Source: an uncultured Planctomycetia bacterium (GTDB taxonomy: Bacteria; Omnitrophota; Gorgyraeia; Tantalellales; Tantalellaceae). From it: a stretch of 64,000 nt of DNA. Shown in pieces: positions 1,221 through 62,656 of this stretch (positions within the stretch are counted from its first letter, which is position 1; every line of letters begins with the position of its first letter). The notes below the pieces were generated by a model that was not told the DNA's origin, searched no databases, and saw nothing but the letters and a program-made list of their open reading frames with translations. Location: contig CAYVIW010000076.1 in NCBI GenBank assembly GCA_964451815.1, positions 6,210 to 70,209 on the forward strand. The letters are read 5' to 3'. A program made the position numbers and the translations under genes.

Positions 1221-1943
1221 TCAGTCCGCCCTCCCGCGTTCGATCTTTTTCTTAAGCGACTTTACCTCCGAGCGCGTAAGCCTGCGGTATTCCCCTCTCT
1301 TTATTCTCCCTATTGAAAGCCCGGCGTATCCCGTCCGTTCGAGCTCCACGACCCTGCTTCCCGCAAGATCGAACATCCTTCTTATCTGCCTTTTCCTGCC
1401 TTCATGCAGACTGATCCGGTAAACCAGCTTCCCCAAACGCTCTATCCCGCAAGGCGAGGTCTTCTTGCCGTCGATCTCGACACCGGAAGCTATCATTTTC
1501 AGAGCTTTTTCCTCCAGAGGATATTCGGTTCTCGCGATATACTCTTTTTCTATCTCAAAAGAGGGATGAGAAAGCCCGTGCGCGAGATCACCGTCGTTGG
1601 TCAGAATAATAAGGCCGGTGGTGTCCTTATCGAGCCTCCCCACCGGGTAAAGTCTTTCCTTGACGCCGCGGAACATATCGGTTATTTTTTTTCTGCCGTG
1701 GGTATCTTTTGCCGTCGATATGACGCCCCCGGGCTTATTTAAAAGAAAATACATCTTTTCTTCCTCGCTCTTAAGAGAAACCCCGTTAAGCGATATTTCG
1801 TGAAGTGAAGGATCCAGCTTAAGGCCTTTTTCCCTTACCACCCGGCCATCGACCTTTACCTTGCCTTTTTCTATAAGAGAGGCGGCGCTTCTTCTTGATG
1901 CCGCTCCTGCGTGGGCTAATATGGTCTGGAGACGTTTTTCCAT
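1221..1943 (-). CDS. Pseudouridine synthase of the RsuA/RluB family, with an S4 RNA-binding domain.
   Basis: N-terminal S4-like segment followed by the catalytic motif PVGRLDKDTTGLIILTNDGDLAHGL. Confidence 0.8.
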   Translation of the reverse strand: MEKRLQTILAHAGAASRRSAASLIEKGKVKVDGRVVREKGLKLDPSLHEISLNGVSLKSEEEKMYFLLNKPGGVISTAKDTHGRKKITDMFRGVKERLYPVGRLDKDTTGLIILTNDGDLAHGLSHPSFEIEKEYIARTEYPLEEKALKMIASGVEIDGKKTSPCGIERLGKLVYRISLHEGRKRQIRRMFDLAGSRVVELERTGYAGLSIGRIKRGEYRRLTRSEVKSLKKKIERGRAD

Positions 1944-1977
1944 CTTTTCCAGGGCCGGCCTGATCCGAAGGTCCGAC

Positions 1978-4668
1978 TCAAACCAGAGCGGCCAGGTTAT
2001 CTTTGAGGTTATCTATCTCGTTGCGGAACTTTTCCCGTTTGGACATTTCCTTTTCTATGACATCGCGGGGAGCTTTATCGAGAAAAGTTTTGTTGGAAAG
2101 TTTATTTTCAAGCCCCGAAAGGAATTTCTCTATCTGTTGTATCTTGATATCGACCCTTTTCCTTTCGACCTCTATGTCCACGGCGTTCCCAAGGGGTATA
2201 TAGAGTTTTATATTATCCACGAGCGCCGCGACAGACCTCTGCGGCCTTTCAACATCCGCCCCCGCGCCCGCGATCCTGCAAAGAGCGAGTTTTTCAAGAT
2301 AAACCGCGTTATTCTCTATAAGGGCCGGGTCCCCGACGTCCGGCGAGGAGAAAAAAACATCCAGTACTGCCTTGGGCCCTACGTTCCAGAACGCCCTTAT
2401 ATTCCTTATGGCCGTTATCATGCGGATGAGTTTCTCCATACCCTGGTAAGCTGCTTCGTCCGTATACTCCTTCTCCACAAGCGGCCATTCCGACATCATT
2501 ATCCATTCACACCCGGCTCCCGGGACCATCTGCCATATCTCTTCGGTGATAAACGGCATTATGGGATGCAGTAATTGCAGGGCTTTTTTAAGAACAGCGA
2601 TGAGCACCTTCTGCGTGGCGTTCTTATCGGAAGAAAGCTTTGATACCTCAAGATACCAGTCGCAATACTTATGCCAAATGAAGTCATAAAGATGCCCGGC
2701 CGCGTCGCTGAAACGGTACTTCTCAAGACTTTCGGTCACGTCCCCGGCGGTTTTGTTCAGATTATGCAGTATCCACCTTTCGGCAAGGCCCAATGAACTG
2801 TAGTCCAGTTCCTCATCCAGAACATTCTCATCAAGGTTCATCAGAACATACCTGGAAGCGTTCCATATCTTGTTGGCGAAATTCCTGCCGATATCGAATT
2901 TATCTTTAGAAAGAAAAACGTCCTGCCCCTGGCTCGTTATAGAAATTACGCTGAACCTCAGGGCATCACTGCCCACTTCGGCTATTATTTCCAGCGGATC
3001 TATCACGTTACCGAGTGATTTTGACATCTTAGTACCAGTAGCGTCCCTTACCGTACCGTGTATATAAACATCCCTGAACGGTATGCCGCCGATGAACTTG
3101 AGACCGGCCATTATCATGCGGGCCACCCAGAAGAATATTATTTCCTGGGCCGTAACAAGCGCCTTTGTCGGGTAAAAAACATCGAGCGTTCTGCTCTTTT
3201 CAGGCCATCCCATGGTCGAAAAAGGCCATAGCCATGAACTGAACCAGGTATCCAGAACGTCAGGGTCCTGCTCTAGATCGCTCCCGCCGCACGAAGGACA
3301 TTTTTCGGGCTTTTCCCTTCCCACAAAGACGCCTTCTTGCCCGGGCCGGGTTATATCAACTTCTCTAACATCCTTGTGTCCCAGACACTGCCTGCAATAC
3401 CACACAGGTATACGATGCCCCCACCATATCTGACGTGAAATACACCAGTCCCTGATATTATTCATCCAGTTAAGGTACACTTTGGTCCATCGCCCCGGAT
3501 AGAACTTTATATCGCCCTTTTCCACCGCTTCTATGGCCTCTCGCGCCAACGGCTTCATCCTAACGAACCATTGCTTTGAAAGGCGCGGCTCCACAATCAC
3601 GTGGCATCTGTAACAATGTCCAACGGCATGGGAATGGTCCTCCGACTTTACAAAAAGCTTACGCTGTTTTAGGTCTTCGATTATCACTTCACGGCATTCC
3701 AGCCTGTCCATGCCTTCGTAATCCTGGCCCAACGCGTTTATGGTCCCGTCGGGGTTCATGACATTGACATTTTCAAGCCCGTGTTTGAGCCCAAGCTCGA
3801 AATCTACGGGATCATGCGCCGGCGTGACCTTGAGGGCGCCTGTGCCGAACTGGGGTTCTACACTTTCATCGAAAATAAGTTTGAGCTCTCTTTTTATTAT
3901 GGGAAGTATAAGTGTCTTACCTTTTAGATGGGCGTATCTCGGGTCTTTCGGGTTAACCGCTACGGCAACATCACCCAGCATTGTCTCAGGCCTGGTGGTA
4001 GCGACCACCACATAATCCTCGTTCTCCGTCTCCAGCTTTTCTCTGCCCTTTACGGGATATTTTATGTAGTAGAGCATACCCTCAAGGTTCCTGTGTTCGG
4101 CCTCCTCGTCACTCAGGGCTGTCTCGCATCTGGGACACCAGTTAATTATGTAGTCCCCTTTGTAGATCAGGCCTTCCCCGTAAAGCCTGATAAAGACCTC
4201 CTTAACCGCTTCCGACAGGCCTTCATCCATAGTAAAGCGCGTGCGGTCCCAGTCGCAGGAACATCCCAGCCTCTTGAGCTGACGTATAATAGTGTTGCCG
4301 TATTCCTCTTTCCACTGCCACACTTTTTCCGTAAACTTTTCGCGCCCGATGTCGTGTCTCTTGAGCCCGCTTTTGGTCAGTTCTCTCTCCACTACATTCT
4401 GTGTAGCGATCCCGGCATGGTCCGTTCCGGGCATCCAGAGAGCCTCAAATCCCTGCATCCTTTTCCATCTTACCAGTATGTCCTGGATAGTATTGTTGAG
4501 CGCATGGCCCATATGGAGGATACCGGTGATATTCGGTGGAGGTATGACTATCGAATAGGGCGCTTTGCCGGAACTCTCATCGGCCCTGAAAAAGCCCTTT
4601 TCGGACCATGCGGAATATATTTTCTCTTCGGCCGAACTGGGATCGTATCTTGTGGGGATATCTTTCAT
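1978..4668 (-). CDS. valS: Valyl-tRNA synthetase.
   Basis: 896 aa carrying the class I HIGH motif (LHMGHALN) and KMSKS, with a typical ValRS N-terminus and C-terminal coiled coil. Confidence 0.95.
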   Translation of the reverse strand: MKDIPTRYDPSSAEEKIYSAWSEKGFFRADESSGKAPYSIVIPPPNITGILHMGHALNNTIQDILVRWKRMQGFEALWMPGTDHAGIATQNVVERELTKSGLKRHDIGREKFTEKVWQWKEEYGNTIIRQLKRLGCSCDWDRTRFTMDEGLSEAVKEVFIRLYGEGLIYKGDYIINWCPRCETALSDEEAEHRNLEGMLYYIKYPVKGREKLETENEDYVVVATTRPETMLGDVAVAVNPKDPRYAHLKGKTLILPIIKRELKLIFDESVEPQFGTGALKVTPAHDPVDFELGLKHGLENVNVMNPDGTINALGQDYEGMDRLECREVIIEDLKQRKLFVKSEDHSHAVGHCYRCHVIVEPRLSKQWFVRMKPLAREAIEAVEKGDIKFYPGRWTKVYLNWMNNIRDWCISRQIWWGHRIPVWYCRQCLGHKDVREVDITRPGQEGVFVGREKPEKCPSCGGSDLEQDPDVLDTWFSSWLWPFSTMGWPEKSRTLDVFYPTKALVTAQEIIFFWVARMIMAGLKFIGGIPFRDVYIHGTVRDATGTKMSKSLGNVIDPLEIIAEVGSDALRFSVISITSQGQDVFLSKDKFDIGRNFANKIWNASRYVLMNLDENVLDEELDYSSLGLAERWILHNLNKTAGDVTESLEKYRFSDAAGHLYDFIWHKYCDWYLEVSKLSSDKNATQKVLIAVLKKALQLLHPIMPFITEEIWQMVPGAGCEWIMMSEWPLVEKEYTDEAAYQGMEKLIRMITAIRNIRAFWNVGPKAVLDVFFSSPDVGDPALIENNAVYLEKLALCRIAGAGADVERPQRSVAALVDNIKLYIPLGNAVDIEVERKRVDIKIQQIEKFLSGLENKLSNKTFLDKAPRDVIEKEMSKREKFRNEIDNLKDNLAALV

Positions 4669-11232: not shown

Positions 11233-11311
11233 TGGTCGGGACGGTGGGATTTGAACCCACGACCCCTAGTCCCCCAGACTAGTACGCTAAACCAGGCTGC
11301 GCCACGTCCCG
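11233..11311 (-). tRNA. tRNA-Pro with anticodon GGG and an encoded CCA tail.
   Basis: Folded by hand as a cloverleaf. The acceptor stem is CGGGACG/CGTCCCG and positions 8-9 are U8 and G9. The D stem is GCGC/GCGU and the anticodon stem CUAGU/ACUAG carries the loop CU-GGG-GG. The T arm is GUGGG-UUCAAAU-CCCAC, followed by discriminator A and CCA. Confidence 0.8.
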
Positions 11312-51297: not shown

Positions 51298-52860
51298 TCA
51301 GTTTTCAAGCATCTCGGAAAACCCACCTCCGGTATAAGCGTCTATATAAGCCGTAAGCTCTTCTATTCTGGAAAGTCTGGTCTTAAGGCCGGAACCATCC
51401 TCTTCAGTTAGGGACCGTGCCTCTTTTATCAGTTTTTTCCTCTCAAAATACAACCTGGTTACATCCTCAAGAATATTATTCCTGAGCTGGACCATGAGCT
51501 TGCTCCTGGTGTCGATCGACGTCTGAGAGGGATTCCAGATAATATTCCCCAGATCCCATACCATGGTAGCCTTCCAGTCGTTCCTCCTGTCGCGTGGACC
51601 ATCCACTATATATGTTCTGGTCGCGCTCTTGTATATTTCCAGATTGTCATTATAGACTTCCCCATAGGCAACAGTAAGCCTGGGGAGCACGGCGTTCCAC
51701 CTGGCGCCCCGCCTCCAACCTTTTATTTTGTCCGGGCTCACCTCGGCATACTCTATGGCCATCTTCTGTGTGGTTGTTATATCCGGACCGGCGGGCGGGA
51801 ATCGAAAACCGGAAGATGAGTTTCTGAATTCGGTGCCATAACCGAACGTGTTCAATTCCCGCGTATATACTTTCCTCTCGGTTGTTATCAGGATATTGCA
51901 GGCACCTTTTTCATCCATGTGAATATCAAGGCCCGTTATGTCCCCTTCCGCCGAAGCCTCGAATATCGAGGTCCACGCGCGGGATACGGGATCTCTCAAA
52001 AAAACCTTGTTCCGGACCGCCGCCATTATGCCCGCCCTCGTTCCGATAGCCATGTTGATCCCCGAAGATGACAACCCATCGACATTGATGTGTTCAGACT
52101 TTTCAGTAAGAGCGTCAAAAAGAACGATCCCCCTTTTGGTGGAAACAACAACCCCTGAAGGGTATCCCACCCCTACATACCTTATGGGCGGCAGGTCAGG
52201 CTCTTCATCTTCCGTTCTATCTTCAAACTCGGAACTATCTCCGTCTGAAACGATGAAATACCTTTTCCATTCCATGGCTCCATCACCTGAATACATAAGG
52301 TCTTCCCCACAAGCCGCGTAGATGACACCGGAGTCTGACACGACGCTTTCTATCTGCCCGGACCTGGGTCCCGTGAAGACAGGCCGTAGGTCCTTGCCCT
52401 CCACAATGAACATCTCATCCACAGTCCACACAATGATCTTGTCTCTGTTCGCGACGAATTCCACCCCCCTGAGACCTTTTTTACCCGGTATATGCCGCCA
52501 TGCCTTACGGGAATGCCCCGCGTTGCCGGGAATAGTATTTATGAACAACCCTTCCATGGTCGCGGCGAGCACTCTTTCCCCCGCGAAAACTATCCCTGTA
52601 ACATGGACATTCCCCGCGGGTAAAGCGGCTTTCTCCCAGTTCTTTCCCCGGTCAATAGTATAGTAAAGCCCGTCTTGTGTTCCTATGTATACCATATCAC
52701 TGCCACTGACGCCTTTTACGCATGTAAGAACAGAGCCTCTTCCTATATTAGCGGTAATATCCTCGAACCCATAAACATTAATGGCACCCGCGAACAATAT
52801 AAAAAACAATAAAAACCGTCCCACGAGCGCCTTGGCCTTTTTCCTTCCCGTCTTTTCCAT
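51298..52860 (-). CDS. Hypothetical secreted protein with BNR/Ycf48-like beta-propeller repeats and a C-terminal coiled coil.
   Basis: Signal peptide followed by repeats resembling the BNR motif S-x-D-x-G-x-T-W (TIDRGKNWE, YSGDGAMEWK). Confidence 0.5.
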   Translation of the reverse strand: MEKTGRKKAKALVGRFLLFFILFAGAINVYGFEDITANIGRGSVLTCVKGVSGSDMVYIGTQDGLYYTIDRGKNWEKAALPAGNVHVTGIVFAGERVLAATMEGLFINTIPGNAGHSRKAWRHIPGKKGLRGVEFVANRDKIIVWTVDEMFIVEGKDLRPVFTGPRSGQIESVVSDSGVIYAACGEDLMYSGDGAMEWKRYFIVSDGDSSEFEDRTEDEEPDLPPIRYVGVGYPSGVVVSTKRGIVLFDALTEKSEHINVDGLSSSGINMAIGTRAGIMAAVRNKVFLRDPVSRAWTSIFEASAEGDITGLDIHMDEKGACNILITTERKVYTRELNTFGYGTEFRNSSSGFRFPPAGPDITTTQKMAIEYAEVSPDKIKGWRRGARWNAVLPRLTVAYGEVYNDNLEIYKSATRTYIVDGPRDRRNDWKATMVWDLGNIIWNPSQTSIDTRSKLMVQLRNNILEDVTRLYFERKKLIKEARSLTEEDGSGLKTRLSRIEELTAYIDAYTGGGFSEMLEN

Positions 52861-52921
52861 TTTTTCACTCCTTTTTTAGTTTTGACCTTGACATAAACAC
52901 TGCCTTTGATAGAATGTATCT

Positions 52922-53006
52922 ATCAATAAAAACGCGGGTCCGACTCCGGATCCTTCGCGTTACAAGGCGGGTGAATATCCCCTACCATCACCCGCCTTTG
53001 ATTTTA
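52922..53006 (+). ncRNA. Candidate small RNA, predicted from an orphan promoter and terminator with no ORF between them.
   Basis: On the plus strand, TTGACA (52888-52893), a 16-nt spacer, then TGATAGAAT (extended -10, 52907-52915). About 85 nt downstream is an 11-bp perfect stem (52964-52974 pairing with 52988-52998) followed by a T-tract. Confidence 0.3.
52964..53006 (+). terminator. Strong plus-strand intrinsic terminator: AAGGCGGGTGA, a 13-nt loop, TCACCCGCCTT, then TTTGATTTT.
   Basis: The 11-bp GC-rich perfect stem and U-tract are read directly from the sequence. Confidence 0.55.
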
Positions 53007-53052
53007 ATCATTTTTTAATTTTTTGTCAATATTTTTTTCATCTTTCATCAAG

Positions 53053-53093
53053 TTAACCTGGTTAAATCAACCAGGTTAAAATAACCAGGTTAA
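53053..53093. promoter_or_regulatory. Operator-like repeat array: an 11-bp perfect inverted repeat (TTAACCTGGTT, AAATC, AACCAGGTTAA) followed by a third direct AACCAGGTTAA copy at 14-bp phasing.
   Basis: Lies immediately upstream of the bgl -35 hexamer. The individual arms are themselves near-palindromic. Confidence 0.55.
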
Positions 53094-53104
53094 GATTGGG
53101 CGCT

Positions 53105-53132
53105 TGATAGTCCGCATAACTAAGTGTATAAT
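53105..53132 (+). promoter_or_regulatory. Promoter candidate (TTGATA, 16 nt, TATAAT) for the beta-glucosidase, implying a leaderless transcript.
   Basis: The -10 ends 6 nt before the ATG at 53139, and there is no room for a Shine-Dalgarno sequence. Confidence 0.45.
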
Positions 53133-53138
53133 CGTGTT

Positions 53139-54413
53139 ATGGGTGCTAATTCTGACAGGTTTCCAGGCGGGTTTTTATGGGGAGCGTCTACTTCGGCTTA
53201 CCAGGTGGAGGGCGGGAACACTTACTGCGACTGGTACGAGTGGGAGGCGGCCGGGAACTCCCAGATGTGCGGCGAGGCCTGCGGCCATTACCGCCTTTAC
53301 CCTGAAGACTTCGCCATGGCGAAAGAACTGGGCCACAATGCCCACCGCCTTGGTCTCGAATGGAGCCGGCTTGAAAAGACCGAAGGCGTGTGGGACAGCG
53401 CCGAATGGGACCATTACAAAAAGGCGCTGGATAAGCTTCTTGAATTCGGGATAGAACCTTTTCTGACCCTCAACCACTTTACTATGCCGCTCTGGCTGTC
53501 AAAAAAGGGAAGCTGGCTGAGCGATGAGTCGCCCTTTTTTTTCGCGCGTTTCGCCGAGAAGGCGTCACGCGAACTGGGCAGCCGCGTAAAATACTGGATA
53601 ACCATCAACGAACCCAACATACTTGCCACTCTCGCCTACTTCTGGGGGCAGTGGCCGCCCTGCCACAAGGATTTCAGCGAAACTCAAACCGTCCTCATTA
53701 ACATGCTGAAAGGCCATGCCCTGTCATACGCGGCTATAAAAGGATCCTCATCCGAAGGCGTAAAGCCTCTTGTGGGTGTGGCGAAAGCCGTGACAGCGTT
53801 CCACCCCTGCCGCCGTTCATCTCTTCAGGACCGTCTGGCGGCACATCGGAGAGACCGTTTCCATAACCATAGTTTCATATCGTCACTTCTCAGCGGACGC
53901 GTGGAACTGGCCGGAAGGAAAGAAAAACTGCCCGGCGCGGGAACGCTTGACTTTATCGGTCTCAATTACTATTTCAGGCAGTTCATACGCAATGACCGGC
54001 CTTTTTCTAAAGACCCCTTCGGCGAGGTTTGTTCCACCAGCCACCATCCGGGCTCGGGCGCAATAACCGATATGGGCTGGGAAATATATCCCCGCGGGCT
54101 CTATGAAGTAGTGAAAAGTTTCAGCAGATACCGCCTGCCTCTTTTTGTGACAGAGAACGGCATAGCCACAAGAGATGACGACACCAGAAAAGATTATATA
54201 AAAAACCATCTTCTAGCGCTTCTTAAAGCCATCAGCGAGGGCTCTCCAGTTAAAGGATATCTCCACTGGTCTCTTCTTGATAACTTTGAGTGGGATTCGG
54301 GATACAGCAAAAAGTTCGGGCTTGTAGAGGTGGACTTCGACACACAGAAACGAACTATCCGCGACTCGGCAAGATACTACAGCCAGGTTATCCGATCGGG
54401 AGAGGTGTTATAG
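53139..54413 (+). CDS. Glycoside hydrolase family 1 beta-glucosidase.
   Basis: GH1 signatures: FLWGASTSAYQVEG, the acid/base catalytic motif ITINEP and the nucleophile motif VTENG. There is no signal peptide. This is the only plus-strand gene in the window. Confidence 0.9.
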   Translation: MGANSDRFPGGFLWGASTSAYQVEGGNTYCDWYEWEAAGNSQMCGEACGHYRLYPEDFAMAKELGHNAHRLGLEWSRLEKTEGVWDSAEWDHYKKALDKLLEFGIEPFLTLNHFTMPLWLSKKGSWLSDESPFFFARFAEKASRELGSRVKYWITINEPNILATLAYFWGQWPPCHKDFSETQTVLINMLKGHALSYAAIKGSSSEGVKPLVGVAKAVTAFHPCRRSSLQDRLAAHRRDRFHNHSFISSLLSGRVELAGRKEKLPGAGTLDFIGLNYYFRQFIRNDRPFSKDPFGEVCSTSHHPGSGAITDMGWEIYPRGLYEVVKSFSRYRLPLFVTENGIATRDDDTRKDYIKNHLLALLKAISEGSPVKGYLHWSLLDNFEWDSGYSKKFGLVEVDFDTQKRTIRDSARYYSQVIRSGEVL

Positions 54414-55747: not shown

Positions 55748-58700
55748 TTACAGCGAGGTATAGACCGCTTCCATGGCGCTTATGTAGTCCCGTATCTCCT
55801 CGTAGTTTATAAGTGTTATCCTTACAACTAAAGCCCCGGTAAAAAGTTTTGCCAGAAGCTCAGCCGGATTTTCTCTATATTGCGAAACTACCCCCATATC
55901 CAGATAACCGGCTCTTCCGAAATGTTCTATCATCTCACTAGCAAGATAACGCATGAACGGATCGTCCTGTTCCATTCCGAAATGAACCTTCAACCTTGTG
56001 TAGTTAAGAGACTGGGTAGCAAAGTGAAGGAGCCTTGGAATATTCTCAAAATGGCTTGCCGAACCCTCGTTCTGGCTAAAAGACACTTTTATCCGAGACT
56101 TAAAATCTCTGAATTTTTCCGTGTCCAGTAGACTGTTAACTTGGTCCCTTGTTGCCTCATTAACACAGTTTATAAGCGCCGCAGGAAACTGCTTTTCGCT
56201 CTTTAACATCTCATCTATAACACGTTCAAGCATTTTCTCGACCAGTTTTCCGTCAAACGAATGATAAGAAGTGTTGATGCCTTCTCTTGTGTACTTACGC
56301 GACATTTTTCGACCGTATCTCTCGGTGGTACTTTCGGAATAATAGTTGTCATTCTCATTACAGACGATATTGCGCACTCCTTTCCTCACGTTGTCTTGCA
56401 TGAACCTTATTTCTGTAGTAAGGGCCAAGTTGCCAGCTGGATCCATGTGGTCCTGGAGGCCATACAGAAATATACTTGGCCCTATCCGCCCGGCAATGTT
56501 AAAATCAATTTTCTGGTCTCTGATCTTTTCGAAATTATGTTTTATCAGGTTTTCTTCATCTCTTGTAAGTTCGCGTAGCTCTATTTCCTTCTGCGTTTTA
56601 TTAAGTTCGTTGATAAACCCTTCATCCCCTATATTCAAGGCTCTGTCAAAGTCCATAACTCCTCTCTCTATCATGACCTCAAGCCCTATCCTGGGCTCCT
56701 CGCCTACACCTTTGGCAACTGTATGGGCGTTTATCCCGCTCACAGCAAGCCCAGGCGAACCATGTATCATCTCATGCGCCAGCGCCATAGCGTGGGCCTT
56801 CGCTTTGGGGCTTTTCATACCTAAAAGCTCCTGATTAAGATATATAACCCGTTCACCCTCGATGACCCCGAAGTGACCCATGACCCTTTCATCCATGGCT
56901 ATGGCCTTTACAGTTATTTTCTTGTCTGTTATTTCCTGGATGATCTTAAGTATCTCTTTTCTTTCGTCTTCGGTCAGAGTACTCGGAATACCGTCCTTCG
57001 GCTTCATAAGATCTTCCAAAGTCTCGGCCAAACCACTTAGGTCGGGGCTTTCAGGTGTTATACGCACCTTCACCTCGGTACTTACCTCTGCCCCTGGATC
57101 CTTGTGCGACACCACAAGAAAACCGTTTTCCTCTCTTGTGGTAAATCCTTCTGTTTTAAGTTGTCCATCCGACCCCATGAACTTTCCGATATTGCCGGCA
57201 ACTGGGGCTAAATCCGACGCGGCAGGGGACAACAACCTCTCATATTCTTTTCTTTCTAATCTCCCGGGCTTCTCAAAAACCTTAATGTATTTTGGTTCAA
57301 ATATCCAGTCTTCTCCATGATCCGCCAACAATCTCTTGAAATAATTTGCCTTTTGCATTGTTTCGATCAGTTGGTCCGCATGGGCCTCTTTATCCTCGAC
57401 TGTGGCCATGGTGTCCAACCCTGGCAATAAGTATGCACCCATTTCCAACCAAGTGAAAACAGTGCTCCACTCCCCCGGGGCCTTCATTTCCAATAACCCT
57501 GCTTGACCAGTGACGAATCTCCCTTTTTCTTCGGAAAGCTTCTTGTCGGAAAGCTCCTGGTCCAGCCTGTAATGCTCATTAAAAAGACGCATCAACTCTT
57601 CTCTCTGCTCATCTGGAACCTCCAACATATTTGTCGCAAAATGACCTTGTCCACTTAAAAGCACATGCAAAATAAGCTGACCAGTGTCCCTCACATCTAG
57701 CGCTTCTTCCACTCCCCCCTTTTCTACATAATTTTTTGCAAATCGGGCTGCTTTTGGCAGATCCATCTTCTGCTGCTCATGCTGCTGTAGAAATAAACTT
57801 ATATTATCGTGTGCTAGGAGTCCACCTTCTGCAGCTAAAGCCGGATTGATAAAATTGTCAGCGATACTATTCCACATATGACGCGGGTAAACTCCCTCTT
57901 GAGCCAACAGCTGGTAAAACATAGACCAGTCTCTAACTATAAGGCGTTTCTTTCCCTCTGCCTTCTTTTCCTCTGCCTTCTTTTCCTCTGCCAAAATGTG
58001 TTCCCTTAGATAATAAGCCTTCCGGAAAAGGTTATCTATGATCGTGAGCACTTGTTCCTCAGTCGCCTCTTCTCCCTGGGATATTAACTGAGCTACTATA
58101 TCGCCCGCTATATTACCTGCGAGATGGTCAGTTGCCATTTTTTTTATGACTTCTTCAACCCAACCGCCTTCGAATCCGGCCGTCAGAACTACCGCATTTA
58201 TGAGTTCAGGTGTTATTGGGTTTTCGGACGACAAGATCTCATCTATGTCTTCAACACTAGTAGCGCCTATAAATGCTGGTAACAAGCGTTTCTCGAAAGT
58301 ACCGAACAAAAGATCTATCTGTTGCTCAAAGGACAATTCCCCGTGATACCCGTTGTAAAGTAAATACATAAAGAGCTGGCTTACACTGTCTGGTCTTAAG
58401 TCCTCTTTCGGCTTTAACAATTGCTCCATATTGCCGGCATCGATCGGGTCGGACTCCAAAAGATTCAGCAAGTATTCGCTGTCTTCATCGCCTATCATGA
58501 TCCTGCCCGATTCCAACTCTACTGCAATAGCATTAATATATGCCGTCACCTTCTCGACATCTTCCAAACTGCCTATCCTCTCTCCGACCTTTTCCCTTAA
58601 TTGCCCCATGGCTTCTTTGTCTGCGAACCAGCCCCCCAGATAACTCCATGCTTCTTCAAGGTTTCTGCTTTTCAGTTTCTCGATCGTCTCATTTACCGAT

Positions 58701-61700
58701 TTCCTATTAAGTCCAAGTTCCCTAAAATCTGGACCCTCTGCAATATTTTTTAGTTCTTCTAACCACGAATTGATCCGTGTTTCTCCGGCTTCACCTACAA
58801 ACGCCGAATTAAGGTCATTGACCATCTCGGCGGTTACTTCTGGCTCTTCAACTTCTAACAGGTCTCTTAATTTTTTATTCCTCTGGACCTCGTTCATGTT
58901 TTCGCCCTCAGTTAAGGCAATGTACATCGCCCAAATAGCTATCTTACTATTTTTATCCAGACCCGAGATAAGAGCATCTGCCGTGCCCTGTCCAAGAAAT
59001 TTTCTGAACTCAACATTAGCTTTTGCAGAATCCCTTATGATGTCTTTTTCCGGGTCCTCATCAAGAAGAAGCGAAACAAACTTACCCAGGTCACTCAGAA
59101 AAGTATCGTCGCTGTCAGCGGGCGTTTCACCCTTGGAGAGATCTTTTACAGCATTCTTTACTCTGTTATGGTGATCTCCTTCATATTTCTTATCTTCGAG
59201 ATGTTCGCGGAGAGATTTTCCATATGCGATATCGAATATCGTGGTTGCCAGACCGTACAGATCTGTTTTTTGCCCATATATACGGCTCTCTGTAGCTTCT
59301 CTTGGCAACCTTCCCGGTGTCCCCTTCGTTGCCGCCATTTCTACTCCTTTGCCTTCGGGATCATAGAGAGCTATGCCGAAATCCCCCAGTTTAATTTTAG
59401 GGTTTCCCGCATCATCAAGCGTTACAAAAATATTATCAGGCTTGATATCCGCGTGTATAACCCCCTTCTCATGCAAAGATCGAACTATCTGAACAAGCTG
59501 GTGTATTATCTGCTCTTTTTGTCTGGGGTTGAGCTCTCGCCCCTGGGTTTTTAGTTCATCGAGAAAAGACCGAAGGGACTTACCCCCGTGTTCCATAACC
59601 AGATAATCATGCTTTCTGCCATCTGCTCCCTCAAAACTGCCTGACTCAATGATGCCTATTGTGCCTCTATTCCCTGAAAGATACCTCATCACCAATACTT
59701 CTCTTATCCTAGAGACATTGTTCATTAAAAAGTTATTCCCTGTCCCGGCAGGATCGACTACTGTAGCATCGGAATCATAATAATGCTGACGATCGAAGAT
59801 CTTGACCGCTACTTCTTTTTTTTCGTCTCCGATCTTAGCCCCATAAACGGACGCGAACCCGCCTTTGCCCAGAAACCTGTTTTGAAAACGGAACGGATTA
59901 CGGTAAAAATTAAAATCGATTTTATTCCCGGAATACCCCATTATCCATTTCCAGTTTTTAGGTATTTGGGATACTTCAAGGGTTAATTCAGAGCCGATCC
60001 TGGGAGGACTGTCTGACTGCTGGTTTATCAACACGTCTGATAAAACCTGTCCGATCTCCCGATCAGGGAAAAAACCTGTTTCGGAAGATTTTTCGGTTAC
60101 CTCCGGAAAAACTATGGCGCTGAGCAGCTCAAGTTCTGCCTGAAGTTGCTCGTTTGTCATTCTGGTTAGATCCCTGCTGAAAACAATACGGAAAAGGTCC
60201 TCCCATTGTTGAGGCGTAAGCTCGGGTGTTTTAGAGCTAATAACCTTTTTGAGCCATGGGGCCTTCTTCGCGATCGCTTCATCAAGCGTGAGATCTAACG
60301 GGTCCACCGGGGTCTCCACTGCCGGACGCCTAGCCAGATAATCTCTCCGGGCGGTCCGCCTCTCCTCATCGGTCATGGACCAGACAGGTTTGTCCAGAAG
60401 ATCCGGGACCCGGGAAAGATCAACTTCTGTCTCTCCTCTTAAAAAGGCCTCTTCCACTCTCTCCGCGAAAAAATGATCGCCGTATATGCCGGCTATTATT
60501 TCGTGCAGGATCACCGCATCACGCTCATCACCTGTAAGATCGGCATTGATCCTTATTCCTCTCCCACCTGCATGTCCGCGGAAAGAAATGCCCTCTACCG
60601 TCCTCGCCAGGCTTTCACCTTGGCTGTTTTTCCCCACTGCCAGTATATCTATTTCGTCGGCTACAGCACCTAACCCAGCTTCACCAAGCCAATTTTTGAG
60701 CTTCGCCATAATTCCCTCAATATCACCTATGTCATTGAAAGCCCCTTCCGGCAGTTTTTCCATCTCAGCGTCCACATACTGCTGATGTACGGCGTCCATG
60801 AGAGCTCTTCTTGATACCACAACAGGAGAGTCCTCCATGCCCTTTATTTTGACAGAAAGCTCAGTATCGCTTACATCTATGCCGGCTATCCCCGCCTGTA
60901 AAGCTTCAAGTCCCCGTTCCTTTAGTATGAAACTCCGAAGCACGACCGATGTTCTCCAATTATCAAGACCTTCGGCGCCCCAGACATCCTCTCCAAGATT
61001 ATTGAGCATGCTGGCTATCTGCATCATGGAGCTCTGTGCCAGGGCCGAGCTCAACATCTGCTGAATGTCTGCGGTCTGGCCGGCCAAAAGGTCAAAATAC
61101 GGGTTCACATAATCCTTCTCCATGGTGAACTTGGGCATTATGGATACATAAGAATAACCCTGTTCTTCGAAAAGCGCGCAGAGGTTCTCGGTATGGAACC
61201 CTCCTGTCATTATTATTGCCGCTTCCCCTCCCGCCGGGACCTCCGAAAAAAGCATGTTCTCCACAAAAGCCTCATCACGTGCGAACGAATACTCATAGAA
61301 CATCATTATCTCGGCAAGATAATTATCGAGCCGAGAAATCCCCGGGGAGGGTCGTGCGGTAATGCCGTATCTGGGACCTTCTCTCGCGATAAATTTCAGG
61401 AAACGTTCAGCACTAAAAGAATCTTTGTTAGATTTGTAATAGGCAAAATCATTCTTGGTAAGCATTATCTTGAATATATTGTCTGTTAACGCCAGGTTCC
61501 TTGAAAGGATGTCCAGCTCCCTCTCCGTATCGCTGCGGAACAAAGGCTCCTTAACTGCTCTTTCGAGATCATCGAGTTCCTCCATGACCTTGAACCGGTC
61601 CACCGCGTCAAAAAGCGAAACATAAACTATGTAACCCGAAAGGGCCGGATAACCCGAAATATCAAAGCCGCATTCCCGCGCCTTTCCTAGGAGATAGTTA

Positions 61701-62656
61701 TAGAACTCTTTCAGCGATATGCGCTTTGTCTTGAACTTCACCGTAGTTGAGACAAGCTCTCTCATCTCCGCCGATGAGAGGATGGACTTCATGCGGTCAA
61801 TAAGAACGGTCCTCTCGGCATTGGCCTTTCGGAAATCAACGCTATCTTCCTTCTCCATGGCCTGAGCTATCAGGTAGATATTCGGGAAGGTCTTAACCGA
61901 AATACCCCTTTCCCTGGCGTTCTTTATCATAAAAGACAGGTATTCCCTGAACTCCATGTTGCCGGCCTTGTAAGAGCTGTAAGCCATGTCCATTTTCAGA
62001 AGGTCCGGTGTAAATATGTGACGTTTGAGATTATTAAAGATATGGCGCAGCTCCTTAAGGTACCCTTCTACCTCTTCCTTATAACGCAAAGAGTCGCGGT
62101 ACACCGCCAGGTTTTTCAGGTAAAGCTCTCTGTCCTCTATGCCCCATAGAGACACCCTGTCGAGGTTGTTTATGGCGTAGAACTCGGCTCCGTTAACCTC
62201 GCCCCTTTTCAGGAAATACTCTGCCACCTCGCGCCGTATCTCACCGCCCGAGATATTAGTGAAAACCGTAAGATCGTACTCCCCGGCTCCGCCTTCGAGG
62301 TTCAGCATGCTAATGCCATATTCCTTGTTTAGATAATCTATTACTCCGGATACCTTCTGCTGCGCGAAATAGTTACAATGCGCGTCCTGGATATGTATAA
62401 CGGTTCTCGCGGCATCACCCCTTTGGGAATACCTGACCTCTCCGAGATGCGCGGGCATGGTAAAGGTCTCAACATCCAGCGAGGCGTACCCTCCTGGGGA
62501 ATGAAGATCTTCCAGATCAACGTCAAACATAGCGTCCGACGCACCGAGCATAGCCTCCGAATCAAGAGTCAGACAGGAGATAAAGAAAACCGCGGAGACC
62601 GCGATCGCCGTCATCCTCATAAATATCCCTGTCTTTTTTCCGAAGATCATCTTCAT
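55748..62656 (-). CDS. Giant predicted secreted multidomain protein of 2302 aa. It combines an N-terminal signal peptide, a TraB/GumN/Tiki-like domain, a eukaryotic-like Ser/Thr protein kinase domain, a long alpha-helical region, an HExxH (HEMIH) zincin-like motif and an unassigned C-terminal domain.
   Basis: A GGAG ribosome-binding site precedes the ATG at 62656, and the N-terminus is a hydrophobic signal sequence. TraB-like motifs include IIMTGGFH…GY. The kinase region (about 59100-59900) has the Gly-rich loop LGKGGFASVYG, the VAVK lysine, HADIKPDN and GDFG. ALAHEMIHG lies at about 56762-56790. Confidence 0.7.
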   Translation of the reverse strand: MKMIFGKKTGIFMRMTAIAVSAVFFISCLTLDSEAMLGASDAMFDVDLEDLHSPGGYASLDVETFTMPAHLGEVRYSQRGDAARTVIHIQDAHCNYFAQQKVSGVIDYLNKEYGISMLNLEGGAGEYDLTVFTNISGGEIRREVAEYFLKRGEVNGAEFYAINNLDRVSLWGIEDRELYLKNLAVYRDSLRYKEEVEGYLKELRHIFNNLKRHIFTPDLLKMDMAYSSYKAGNMEFREYLSFMIKNARERGISVKTFPNIYLIAQAMEKEDSVDFRKANAERTVLIDRMKSILSSAEMRELVSTTVKFKTKRISLKEFYNYLLGKARECGFDISGYPALSGYIVYVSLFDAVDRFKVMEELDDLERAVKEPLFRSDTERELDILSRNLALTDNIFKIMLTKNDFAYYKSNKDSFSAERFLKFIAREGPRYGITARPSPGISRLDNYLAEIMMFYEYSFARDEAFVENMLFSEVPAGGEAAIIMTGGFHTENLCALFEEQGYSYVSIMPKFTMEKDYVNPYFDLLAGQTADIQQMLSSALAQSSMMQIASMLNNLGEDVWGAEGLDNWRTSVVLRSFILKERGLEALQAGIAGIDVSDTELSVKIKGMEDSPVVVSRRALMDAVHQQYVDAEMEKLPEGAFNDIGDIEGIMAKLKNWLGEAGLGAVADEIDILAVGKNSQGESLARTVEGISFRGHAGGRGIRINADLTGDERDAVILHEIIAGIYGDHFFAERVEEAFLRGETEVDLSRVPDLLDKPVWSMTDEERRTARRDYLARRPAVETPVDPLDLTLDEAIAKKAPWLKKVISSKTPELTPQQWEDLFRIVFSRDLTRMTNEQLQAELELLSAIVFPEVTEKSSETGFFPDREIGQVLSDVLINQQSDSPPRIGSELTLEVSQIPKNWKWIMGYSGNKIDFNFYRNPFRFQNRFLGKGGFASVYGAKIGDEKKEVAVKIFDRQHYYDSDATVVDPAGTGNNFLMNNVSRIREVLVMRYLSGNRGTIGIIESGSFEGADGRKHDYLVMEHGGKSLRSFLDELKTQGRELNPRQKEQIIHQLVQIVRSLHEKGVIHADIKPDNIFVTLDDAGNPKIKLGDFGIALYDPEGKGVEMAATKGTPGRLPREATESRIYGQKTDLYGLATTIFDIAYGKSLREHLEDKKYEGDHHNRVKNAVKDLSKGETPADSDDTFLSDLGKFVSLLLDEDPEKDIIRDSAKANVEFRKFLGQGTADALISGLDKNSKIAIWAMYIALTEGENMNEVQRNKKLRDLLEVEEPEVTAEMVNDLNSAFVGEAGETRINSWLEELKNIAEGPDFRELGLNRKSVNETIEKLKSRNLEEAWSYLGGWFADKEAMGQLREKVGERIGSLEDVEKVTAYINAIAVELESGRIMIGDEDSEYLLNLLESDPIDAGNMEQLLKPKEDLRPDSVSQLFMYLLYNGYHGELSFEQQIDLLFGTFEKRLLPAFIGATSVEDIDEILSSENPITPELINAVVLTAGFEGGWVEEVIKKMATDHLAGNIAGDIVAQLISQGEEATEEQVLTIIDNLFRKAYYLREHILAEEKKAEEKKAEGKKRLIVRDWSMFYQLLAQEGVYPRHMWNSIADNFINPALAAEGGLLAHDNISLFLQQHEQQKMDLPKAARFAKNYVEKGGVEEALDVRDTGQLILHVLLSGQGHFATNMLEVPDEQREELMRLFNEHYRLDQELSDKKLSEEKGRFVTGQAGLLEMKAPGEWSTVFTWLEMGAYLLPGLDTMATVEDKEAHADQLIETMQKANYFKRLLADHGEDWIFEPKYIKVFEKPGRLERKEYERLLSPAASDLAPVAGNIGKFMGSDGQLKTEGFTTREENGFLVVSHKDPGAEVSTEVKVRITPESPDLSGLAETLEDLMKPKDGIPSTLTEDERKEILKIIQEITDKKITVKAIAMDERVMGHFGVIEGERVIYLNQELLGMKSPKAKAHAMALAHEMIHGSPGLAVSGINAHTVAKGVGEEPRIGLEVMIERGVMDFDRALNIGDEGFINELNKTQKEIELRELTRDEENLIKHNFEKIRDQKIDFNIAGRIGPSIFLYGLQDHMDPAGNLALTTEIRFMQDNVRKGVRNIVCNENDNYYSESTTERYGRKMSRKYTREGINTSYHSFDGKLVEKMLERVIDEMLKSEKQFPAALINCVNEATRDQVNSLLDTEKFRDFKSRIKVSFSQNEGSASHFENIPRLLHFATQSLNYTRLKVHFGMEQDDPFMRYLASEMIEHFGRAGYLDMGVVSQYRENPAELLAKLFTGALVVRITLINYEEIRDYISAMEAVYTSL

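Follow-up and report, generated by a model that had tools for sequence, protein, structure and literature searches.

A predicted small RNA and a face-to-face promoter pair ahead of a beta-propeller gene are conserved in Omnitrophota

The 64,000-nt stretch of contig CAYVIW010000076.1 analyzed here (hereafter the window) comes from a member of Omnitrophota, a phylum of uncultured, mostly ultra-small bacteria. Between the genes for a secreted beta-propeller protein and a GH1 beta-glucosidase it carries a plus-strand promoter, P(+), and a strong terminator hairpin, which most likely make a non-coding small RNA (sRNA) of ~85 nt (52922-53006, counted from the start that we infer through the last base of the U-tract), and it is conserved across 18 lineages of that phylum. 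With moderate confidence we read this sRNA as a cis-encoded antisense regulator of the propeller operon, placed in a cassette of two promoters that face each other. The pair had been described in an earlier note on this DNA as an orphan, divergent from the propeller gene. The first description does not hold, as a conserved minus-strand promoter, P(-), faces P(+) from beyond the terminator in all 18 lineages; nor does the second, as the sRNA would be antisense to about the first 72 nt of the predicted propeller mRNA leader. The module is neither an orphan nor linked to the bgl gene.

The comparison set comprises 18 distinct Omnitrophota lineages, with propeller proteins sharing 31-76% identity. 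Ten of these lineages were reached through the propeller protein and are unbiased with respect to the RNA: the window, L008 (76% identity), L010 (45%), L011, L014, L017 (41%), L032 (36%), L037 and L001 (34%), and L036 (33%). The remaining lineages were found by a DNA pattern scan. The metagenome scan used one pattern anchored on the terminator hairpin (hairpin 1) and returned 12 matches, one per contig, 11 of them at the propeller locus; the twelfth, L026, is a chance GC-rich similarity and not the element. The window itself is matched by a contig of a JGI sediment metagenome (3300001533, MLSed_10000456), and all named relatives of the propeller protein belong to Candidatus Omnitrophota.

Two promoters facing each other

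P(+) reads TTGACA-16-TGATAGAAT at 52888-52915, with the -35 hexamer TTGACA at 52888-52893 and an extended -10 element TG-A-TAGAAT at 52907-52915 (TG at 52907-52908, TAGAAT at 52910-52915). It matches 11 of 12 hexamer positions in addition to the extended -10 TG, and the near-consensus plus-strand promoter of the earlier note is borne out both in the window and in its relatives. Across the lineages the -35 hexamer is TTGACA in 13 and TTGACT in four, L001 being the sole divergent case; the spacer is 16 nt long in 16 of these 17 lineages, while its sequence is free to vary. A -10 element of the TGnTAAAAT type is kept in 17/18 lineages, and L023 is without the TG. The start site, set 7 nt after the -10 element, would be the A at 52922; most lineages have a purine at this position, with UCAAU after it. 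Promoter-like matches are common in this DNA (13 observed in 6 kb against 7.6 expected), and one match alone is weak evidence. P(+) and its terminator rise above chance because they are conserved in 18 lineages: the sRNA has a sigma-70-type promoter of its own, and relatives keep it.

P(-), which the earlier note had overlooked, is of equal quality. It reads TTGACA-17-TAAAAT on the minus strand from 53029 to 53001, with the -35 hexamer at 53024-53029 and the -10 hexamer at 53001-53006. Its TTGACA is perfect in 18/18 lineages, with spacers of 16-18 nt, and a TAnnAT -10 (mostly TAAAAT, TATAAT or TACAAT) is found in 16/16 lineages scored and also in L036 and L037, ending 5-7 nt ahead of the invariant GCGGGTGA. 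The promoter scan found no second good minus-strand promoter before the propeller gene. Transcription from P(-) would start near 52995, within what becomes the mRNA's 5' arm of hairpin 1, so that the minus-sense hairpin begins 0-2 nt from the expected mRNA 5' end. The predicted leader is ~135 nt long (52861-52995, minus strand), and P(-) transcripts would cross hairpin 1, the second hairpin of the sRNA (hairpin 2) and the DNA of P(+) before reaching the Shine-Dalgarno sequence and the ATG (52860).

The start sites expected for the two promoters lie ~72 bp apart, and the sRNA and the first ~72 nt of the predicted leader are exactly complementary; where the overlap between the start sites was calculated in a lineage, it came to about 70-72 nt. 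In the window the overlap spans 52922-52995, and the Shine-Dalgarno sequence and start codon, at about 52860-52875, stay uncovered.

Two further features were seen around the promoters. An ATCAA motif lies 5-6 nt downstream of the P(-) -35 hexamer (53010-53029, all 18 lineages; consensus TTGACAAAAAATCAA, TTAAA in the window) and recurs at positions +2 to +6 of P(+) (RTCAAT; 52922-52927). These may form a pair of protein-binding half-sites, or reflect only preferences of initially transcribed sequences. Several independent assemblies also break within 15-50 nt of the module: L019 at the P(-) -10 box, and L018 and L009 just before the P(-) -35 hexamer. Such breaks could stem from assembly trouble at the hairpins or from transcript-derived contigs.

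Anatomy and fold of the predicted RNA

The predicted sRNA starts with an A-rich single-stranded end, AUCAAUAAA (9 nt, 52922-52930; consensus RUCAAUAAAAA), followed by hairpin 2 at 52931-52961. This hairpin has an outer stem AACGC/GCGTT, an inner stem GGGTCCG/CGGATCC with one G.U pair, a loop ACTC and a 3' bulge TTC, and it accommodates both the ACGCG...CGCGU stem and the TCCGGA palindrome that had been pointed out in the interior of the transcript. Two unpaired nucleotides (52962-52963) link the hairpins, with 4 nt between the conserved core stems. Hairpin 1 (52964-52998), the sRNA terminator and in the minus sense the 5'-terminal hairpin of the mRNA, pairs AAGGCGGGTGA (52964-52974) perfectly with TCACCCGCCTT (52988-52998) in 11 bp, seven of them G-C. 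As RNA it consists of the stem AAGGCGGGUGA/UCACCCGCCUU with a 13-nt loop, followed by UGAUUUUAAUCAUUUUUU. The consensus terminator scan, limited to loops of 3-8 nt, missed hairpin 1 because its 13-nt loop exceeds the 8-nt limit.

By itself hairpin 1 has a folding energy of -19 kcal/mol (z = -4.7 relative to shuffles), as befits the very strong terminator with an 11-bp GC-rich perfect stem that had been claimed. The T-tract claimed to follow it is present, but it is interrupted (TTTGATTTTAATCATTTTTT). The U-tract of the terminator, TTTGATTTTA, occupies 52997-53006, and its last six bases are the -10 box of P(-). At least five of the eight bases after hairpin 1 are T on the plus strand in 18/18 lineages, the pattern of an intrinsic terminator. 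The whole region 52922-53010 (89 nt) folds at -35.4 kcal/mol (z = -5.9), and 0/200 shuffles folded as well. Taken with the comparative data on promoter, terminator and structured strand, this backs the earlier proposal of a short non-coding plus-strand transcript from ~52922 to ~53006. The statement that the terminator only makes sense as the 3' end of such a transcript was too strong, as the same hairpin would form the 5' terminus of the propeller mRNA. A bidirectional terminator serving a minus-strand gene or a pair of converging genes was rejected: no gene ends here, and a minus-strand gene begins.

The RNA shows no sign of coding. It had been said that no open reading frame (ORF) lies between promoter and terminator; strictly, a 34-codon plus-strand ORF does (52914-53018, its ATG within the -10 box), but it is not a gene, being found only in the window and its closest relative, L008. 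A 21-codon minus-strand ORF is confined to the window. These small ORFs are missing in 14-16 of 16 lineages checked, in which changes of loop length shift the frame, and no conserved ORF was found in the sRNA among these 16. A small protein or a type I toxin was rejected on these grounds, and the locus does not resemble a type I toxin-antitoxin system.

A search of the whole window against Rfam 15 at gathering thresholds, the database check that the earlier note had advised, gave only a tRNA and no relevant match; the tRNA/tmRNA scan of the window likewise found only tRNA-Pro at 11233-11311. With E-values up to 10, the best matches in 52500-53400 reached 9-18 bits against thresholds of 40-229, all on the minus strand. 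Literature and Rfam searches found no described regulatory RNA of Omnitrophota.

Two additional pairings were considered and rejected. A third leader hairpin, TTGATAGA/TCTATCAA at 52906-52926, is reduced elsewhere to 3-5 bp with variable spacing, and its pairing probably arises incidentally from the conserved TTGAT (-10) and RTCAAT (+1) motifs. An alternative pairing between hairpins 1 and 2, formed by a repeat and an inverted pair, occurs only in the window's close relatives.

Conservation, covariation and the strand under selection

The conserved blocks of the alignment are the promoter hexamers and both hairpins, and the sequence between them is variable. Mean column identity is ~78% over 100 nt across lineages whose flanking protein falls to 31-34% identity. 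R1, a covariance model derived from the alignment, scores a single copy at each locus (79-110 bits). In the 244 kb searched it detects no second one, its other matches being the reverse strand of the same hairpin; a repeated or mobile element was rejected on the strength of this single copy. The conservation and covariation in related genomes that the earlier note had suggested looking for are both there, with the module present in 18 lineages and hairpin 2 covarying.

Because a G.U pair on one strand is an A.C mismatch on the other, wobble pairs can tell which strand carries the selected structure. The plus-strand consensus fold has 20 pairs and the minus-strand one 18, with covariation terms of -1.07 and -0.11, respectively; on the minus strand, A.C and C.A cells stand in place of the plus-strand G.U. 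With the structure fixed, 18 G.U cells at five positions are counted on the plus strand versus three on the minus strand, these last in the doubtful outermost pair. Fitted to the model, the alignment has 98.8% of its plus-strand cells paired, with six pairs altered on both sides; 0/500 shuffles match the observed covariation score or paired fraction, and sliding the partners by one column lowers pairing to 45-48%.

Most of this signal lies in hairpin 2, where five of ten pairs are changed on both sides and which is more stable on the plus than on the minus strand in 15/18 lineages. A full series of G-C, G.U and A-U is seen at two positions, one in inner hairpin 2 and one at the base of hairpin 1 (columns 65-95). 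The compensatory and wobble changes expected of a structured plus-strand RNA are thus supplied by hairpin 2; hairpin 1 is near-invariant and uninformative in this respect. In the minus sense, the eight bases after hairpin 2 include at least five U in only 10/18 lineages, and at most three in 7/18. Taken together, these patterns are good but not overwhelming evidence that it is the plus-strand RNA that is structured and selected.

The element follows the propeller gene

The gene downstream of P(-) encodes a 520-aa beta-propeller protein with a signal peptide (BNR/Ycf48-like; 51298-52860, minus strand) and is the first gene of a minus-strand array. A propeller orthologue lies directly downstream of the element (tblastn) in every locus with enough contig. 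The conserved order is aldo-keto reductase, GH1, element, propeller, usually a 162-aa protein, then fabG-acpP-fabF; this chromosomal synteny speaks against a plasmid, phage or transposon as the carrier. Whether GH1 is inverted or separated from the propeller gene, the element keeps its place next to that gene: GH1 of L014 is found upstream of the element, in the same direction as the propeller gene, and two unrelated genes, a toxin-antitoxin pair, stand between element and GH1 in L011. The relation to a bgl operator array that the earlier note had proposed does not survive these rearrangements, and the AACCAGGTTAA repeats of that array occur only in the three closest lineages, namely the window, L008, where they are kept, and L010, which has four copies.

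In the window, three AACCAGGTTAA-type palindromes in a 14-bp register occupy 53050-53093, between P(-) and the GH1 promoter. They are probably an operator array for a lineage-specific regulator and, going by their distribution, lie outside the conserved module. The GH1 beta-glucosidase gene (53139-54413, plus strand) is preceded by a promoter TTGATA-17-TATAAT at 53104-53132; with its ATG at 53139 there is no room for a Shine-Dalgarno sequence and the gene looks leaderless, as it does in L008. In L014 (region 1473-3000) GH1 overlaps the end of the aldo-keto reductase gene and has a GC-rich terminator of its own, GCGGGGACGGCCCCGC with a T-run, just before P(-). The insertion of L011 (1470-2701) is a two-gene cassette with an AbiEii-family toxin, placed between GH1 and the element.

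The element is missing upstream of the distant propeller homologues L033, L034 and L035, which lie in other gene neighbourhoods. Some 450 nt upstream of the module-less homologue of L034 there is a match to the c-di-GMP-I riboswitch (2401-2551; 35.6 bits against a gathering threshold of 35), with a terminator, a small ORF and a further long hairpin after it; this suggests that leader control of the gene family is elaborate in other clades as well. L020 and L032 (2905-2965 in L032) carry a 15-bp perfect GC-rich hairpin, CAGGCACACCCCGGG...CCCGGGGGTGTGCCTG, in the propeller leader between P(+) and the ribosome-binding site; this inserted hairpin may be a small repeat element. Searches of Pfam, NCBIfam and PDB sequences gave nothing usable on the identity of the propeller protein.

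Positions 323-52860 form an unbroken run of minus-strand ORFs, and the earlier statement that nothing else is transcribed on the plus strand for 50 kb upstream is essentially right. These ~52 kb of uninterrupted minus-strand ORFs show a uniformly negative GC skew. Beyond the module there is an ORF of 2302 aa (55748-62656) with protein-kinase domains, in line with the giant proteins reported for Omnitrophota.

An invariant hairpin

The alignment shows one more pattern that bears on function. The core stem of hairpin 1, GCGGGTGA/TCACCCGC (RNA GCGGGUGA/UCACCCGC), is identical in 18/18 lineages, as is the block CCCUACC of the plus-sense loop, whereas variation is seen in hairpin 2, in the linker and in the loop's 5' half. 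Together with the 3' arm, the loop's 3' half makes up an invariant C-rich block at 52980-52996, CCCTACCATCACCCGCC in the window and CCCTACCCTCACCCGCC in the consensus. This invariance is not a search artefact, because ten lineages were found without reference to the RNA. A G-quadruplex on the minus strand was rejected: only three G3 tracts are conserved, and the fourth (GG) is lost in L001, L010, L014 and L023.

Two resemblances to ribosomal sequence could be coincidence. The minus-sense loop GUAGGGGA(A) and the 3' arm UCACC..CCUU are reminiscent of helix 45 and the 3' tail of Escherichia coli 16S rRNA, a region to which the sRNA loop would equivalently be complementary. Hairpin 1 has, moreover, a stem reminiscent of a Shine-Dalgarno/anti-Shine-Dalgarno duplex with one extra base pair.

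Weighing the explanations

If the sRNA is an antisense regulator, P(+) would make an RNA with an A-rich 5' end, the covarying hairpin 2 and the GC-rich terminator hairpin 1, and P(-) would make the mRNA of the propeller gene and the genes behind it, starting within that terminator hairpin. A polymerase from either promoter would have to meet or cross the other promoter, and mutual transcriptional interference is expected because the start sites lie only ~72 bp apart; a polymerase making the sRNA would cross the open-complex region of P(-) before terminating. By pairing with the leader, the sRNA would undo the hairpin that protects the mRNA 5' end and give rise to a ~72-bp duplex, an expected substrate of RNase III-type decay. 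Direct occlusion of the ribosome-binding site is unlikely because the overlap stops short of it.

Several observations count against this explanation or blunt the evidence for it. Complementarity of sense and antisense strands is automatic, and it leaves the invariance of the hairpin 1 stem and half of its loop unexplained; constraint on two strands could slow covariation, yet hairpin 2, which is likewise constrained, still varies. The ribosome-binding site lies ~120 nt into the leader, beyond the overlap, so classical occlusion does not apply. Wobble at five plus-strand positions against no reliable minus-strand position corresponds to roughly p = 0.03 in a sign test, and, as the 18 lineages share ancestry, counts of cells exceed the number of independent events. 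Finally, the A-rich 5' end of the sRNA, which in the mRNA is a U-tract after hairpin 2, is found in about half of the lineages and also fits attenuation in the mRNA sense.

The invariance of hairpin 1 seems to point to a third partner. A possible though doubtful elaboration is that the invariant hairpin serves as the recognition site of a conserved protein, a small ligand or a universal RNA, and that the module is a sensor-coupled bistable switch in which the partner chooses the winning promoter; as a sub-variant, the C-rich loop would also act in trans on G-rich ribosome-binding sites or on the 3' domain of 16S rRNA.

Two alternatives shift the function to one of the two transcripts, and neither is mutually exclusive with the antisense model. 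It is conceivable, though on the whole unlikely, that the function resides in the minus-strand mRNA leader, combining a 5' hairpin that binds a protein or ligand through its G-rich loop GGGUAGGGGA with an attenuator made of hairpin 2 and its U-tract, P(+) being secondary or incidental. In its favour, the element always sits between the perfectly conserved P(-) and one and the same gene, directly downstream of the promoter; the expected +1 of the mRNA marks the beginning of the invariant block, a specific binding site would typically keep stem and loop alike unchanged, and at least five of eight bases after hairpin 2 are U in 10/18 lineages. Yet the wobbles and compensatory paths fit only the plus strand, the corresponding minus-strand cells being A.C mismatches, and the U-tract is weak or absent (at most 3/8 U) in 7/18 lineages, among them L014, L023 and L027, which is not the behaviour of a conserved attenuator. 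No conserved antiterminator pairing was found either: the window fold contains none, and the sole candidate, GCGGGU/ACCCGC of hairpin 2, is unconserved, as the CCCGC of the 3' arm is not kept, although this search was not exhaustive. Even with E allowed up to 10 there is no match to a riboswitch family, and the full footprint of P(+) in 17-18 lineages is hard to call incidental. In the other alternative the plus-strand RNA acts mainly in trans: the invariant, C-rich sequence of its loop and 3' arm (CCCUACCCUCACCC) would pair with G-rich targets such as Shine-Dalgarno regions or another conserved RNA, and its position opposite the propeller leader would be secondary. C-rich loops that target ribosome-binding sites are an established sRNA mechanism (RsaE/RoxS), propeller genes often carry sites of the GGAGGGG type, and the 3' half of the loop and the stem stay invariant at 31-76% protein identity while the other hairpin covaries, an invariance that pairing in cis does not need. 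We nevertheless regard this as quite improbable: the gene is strictly bound to its locus and overlaps the propeller leader in every lineage, the loop complement GGTAGGGG occurs four times in the window (2.4 expected by chance; three of the four outside the element) with none near a start codon, and no target was found within the 64-kb window.

The remaining explanations fare much worse. GH1 lies downstream on the strand of P(+) in the window and most relatives, and GH1 genes of other bacteria are often under terminator/antiterminator leaders, which makes a BglG/LicT-style attenuator, with the plus transcript as the 5' leader of the beta-glucosidase gene and hairpin 1 as its terminator, a natural thought. 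It is very unlikely to be right, since GH1 has its own promoter immediately before the start codon (53104-53132) and the two hairpins, 4-5 nt apart, cannot be mutually exclusive as a pair of ribonucleic antiterminator (RAT) and terminator must be. A RAT-terminator would also lie upstream of the bgl gene and be co-oriented with it, but P(+) points at the 3' end of GH1 in L014, and two genes intervene in L011. We give next to no credence to the absence of a dedicated function, with the promoters and fold as by-products of an AT-rich intergenic region with a hairpin, or to a small protein or type I toxin, despite the frequency of promoter-like matches (13 versus 7.6 expected) and the 34- and 21-codon ORFs of the window. 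The column identity of ~78% over 100 nt persists although the flanking protein is at 31-34%, hexamers are conserved where spacers vary, and the ORFs are missing in 14-16 of the 16 lineages checked.

If the antisense reading is right, the module is an unusually clean case, in nature, of a minimal face-to-face cassette, in which the terminator U-tract of one transcript doubles as the -10 box of the opposing promoter and either transcript starts close to the end of its counterpart. It would control, or at least mark, the head of a long gene array with core lipid-synthesis genes. Should the third partner be real as well, the switch would head a ~50-kb co-directional array that starts with the secreted propeller and fatty-acid synthesis genes, and a dedicated partner of the invariant hairpin would offer a handle on regulation in a phylum not yet grown. 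The clear anatomy, the 18 diverse examples and the covariance model R1 make the sRNA a well-supported candidate for a new RNA family, and the cassette, at ~140 bp, can be tested directly in a heterologous host.

Comparison with known systems

The closest mechanistic parallels are the countertranscript RNAs, such as IS10 RNA-OUT/RNA-IN, R1 CopA/CopT, pT181 RNAI and ColE1 RNAI. These are structured, terminator-ended RNAs of ~70-110 nt, made from a strong promoter that faces the target promoter and fully complementary to the 5' leader of the target mRNA. The element resembles them in its short, structured, terminator-ended RNA, its facing promoters and its predicted complementarity to a leader; transcription of the opposite strand as the target mRNA is likewise predicted, from a P(-) kept in 18/18 lineages. 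It differs in being chromosomal, single-copy and vertically conserved, with no transposase or replication gene. Unlike in the IS10 or hok/sok arrangement, the overlap ends ~50 nt short of the ribosome-binding site and would not occlude it directly, and part of the sequence is invariant, which countertranscript systems do not need. The Rfam search gave no homology of the sRNA to these systems.

Strong convergent promoters, tens to a couple of hundred bp apart, are also known from prgQ/prgX of the Enterococcus plasmid pCF10 and from pR/pL of coliphage 186. As in those systems, each transcript would cross the other promoter and a short terminated RNA is among the expected products. Those, however, are plasmid and phage lifestyle switches with known protein regulators, whereas no regulator gene is linked to the module, and the genes placed under control here would be a secreted propeller and then, in most lineages, fabG-acpP-fabF.

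With RsaE/RoxS and the hairpins of Staphylococcus aureus RNAIII the sRNA shares an unpaired, conserved C-rich loop motif and an intrinsic terminator. It differs from them in having no Rfam-model match, in coming from another phylum and in carrying the C-rich block in the loop and arm of the terminator; the complement of its loop is neither enriched nor near starts in the 64-kb window, as that of an RsaE/RoxS-like RNA would be. In the mRNA sense, hairpin 1 at the predicted 5' end recalls the 5'-terminal stabilizing hairpins, for example of the ompA leader, that protect mRNA against 5'-end-dependent decay. Such hairpins, unlike hairpin 1, are not sequence-invariant and have no dedicated antisense RNA gene. 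Among these systems the element is best placed as a putative chromosomal cis-antisense sRNA, familiar in its class of mechanism and unusually compact and symmetric in its design.

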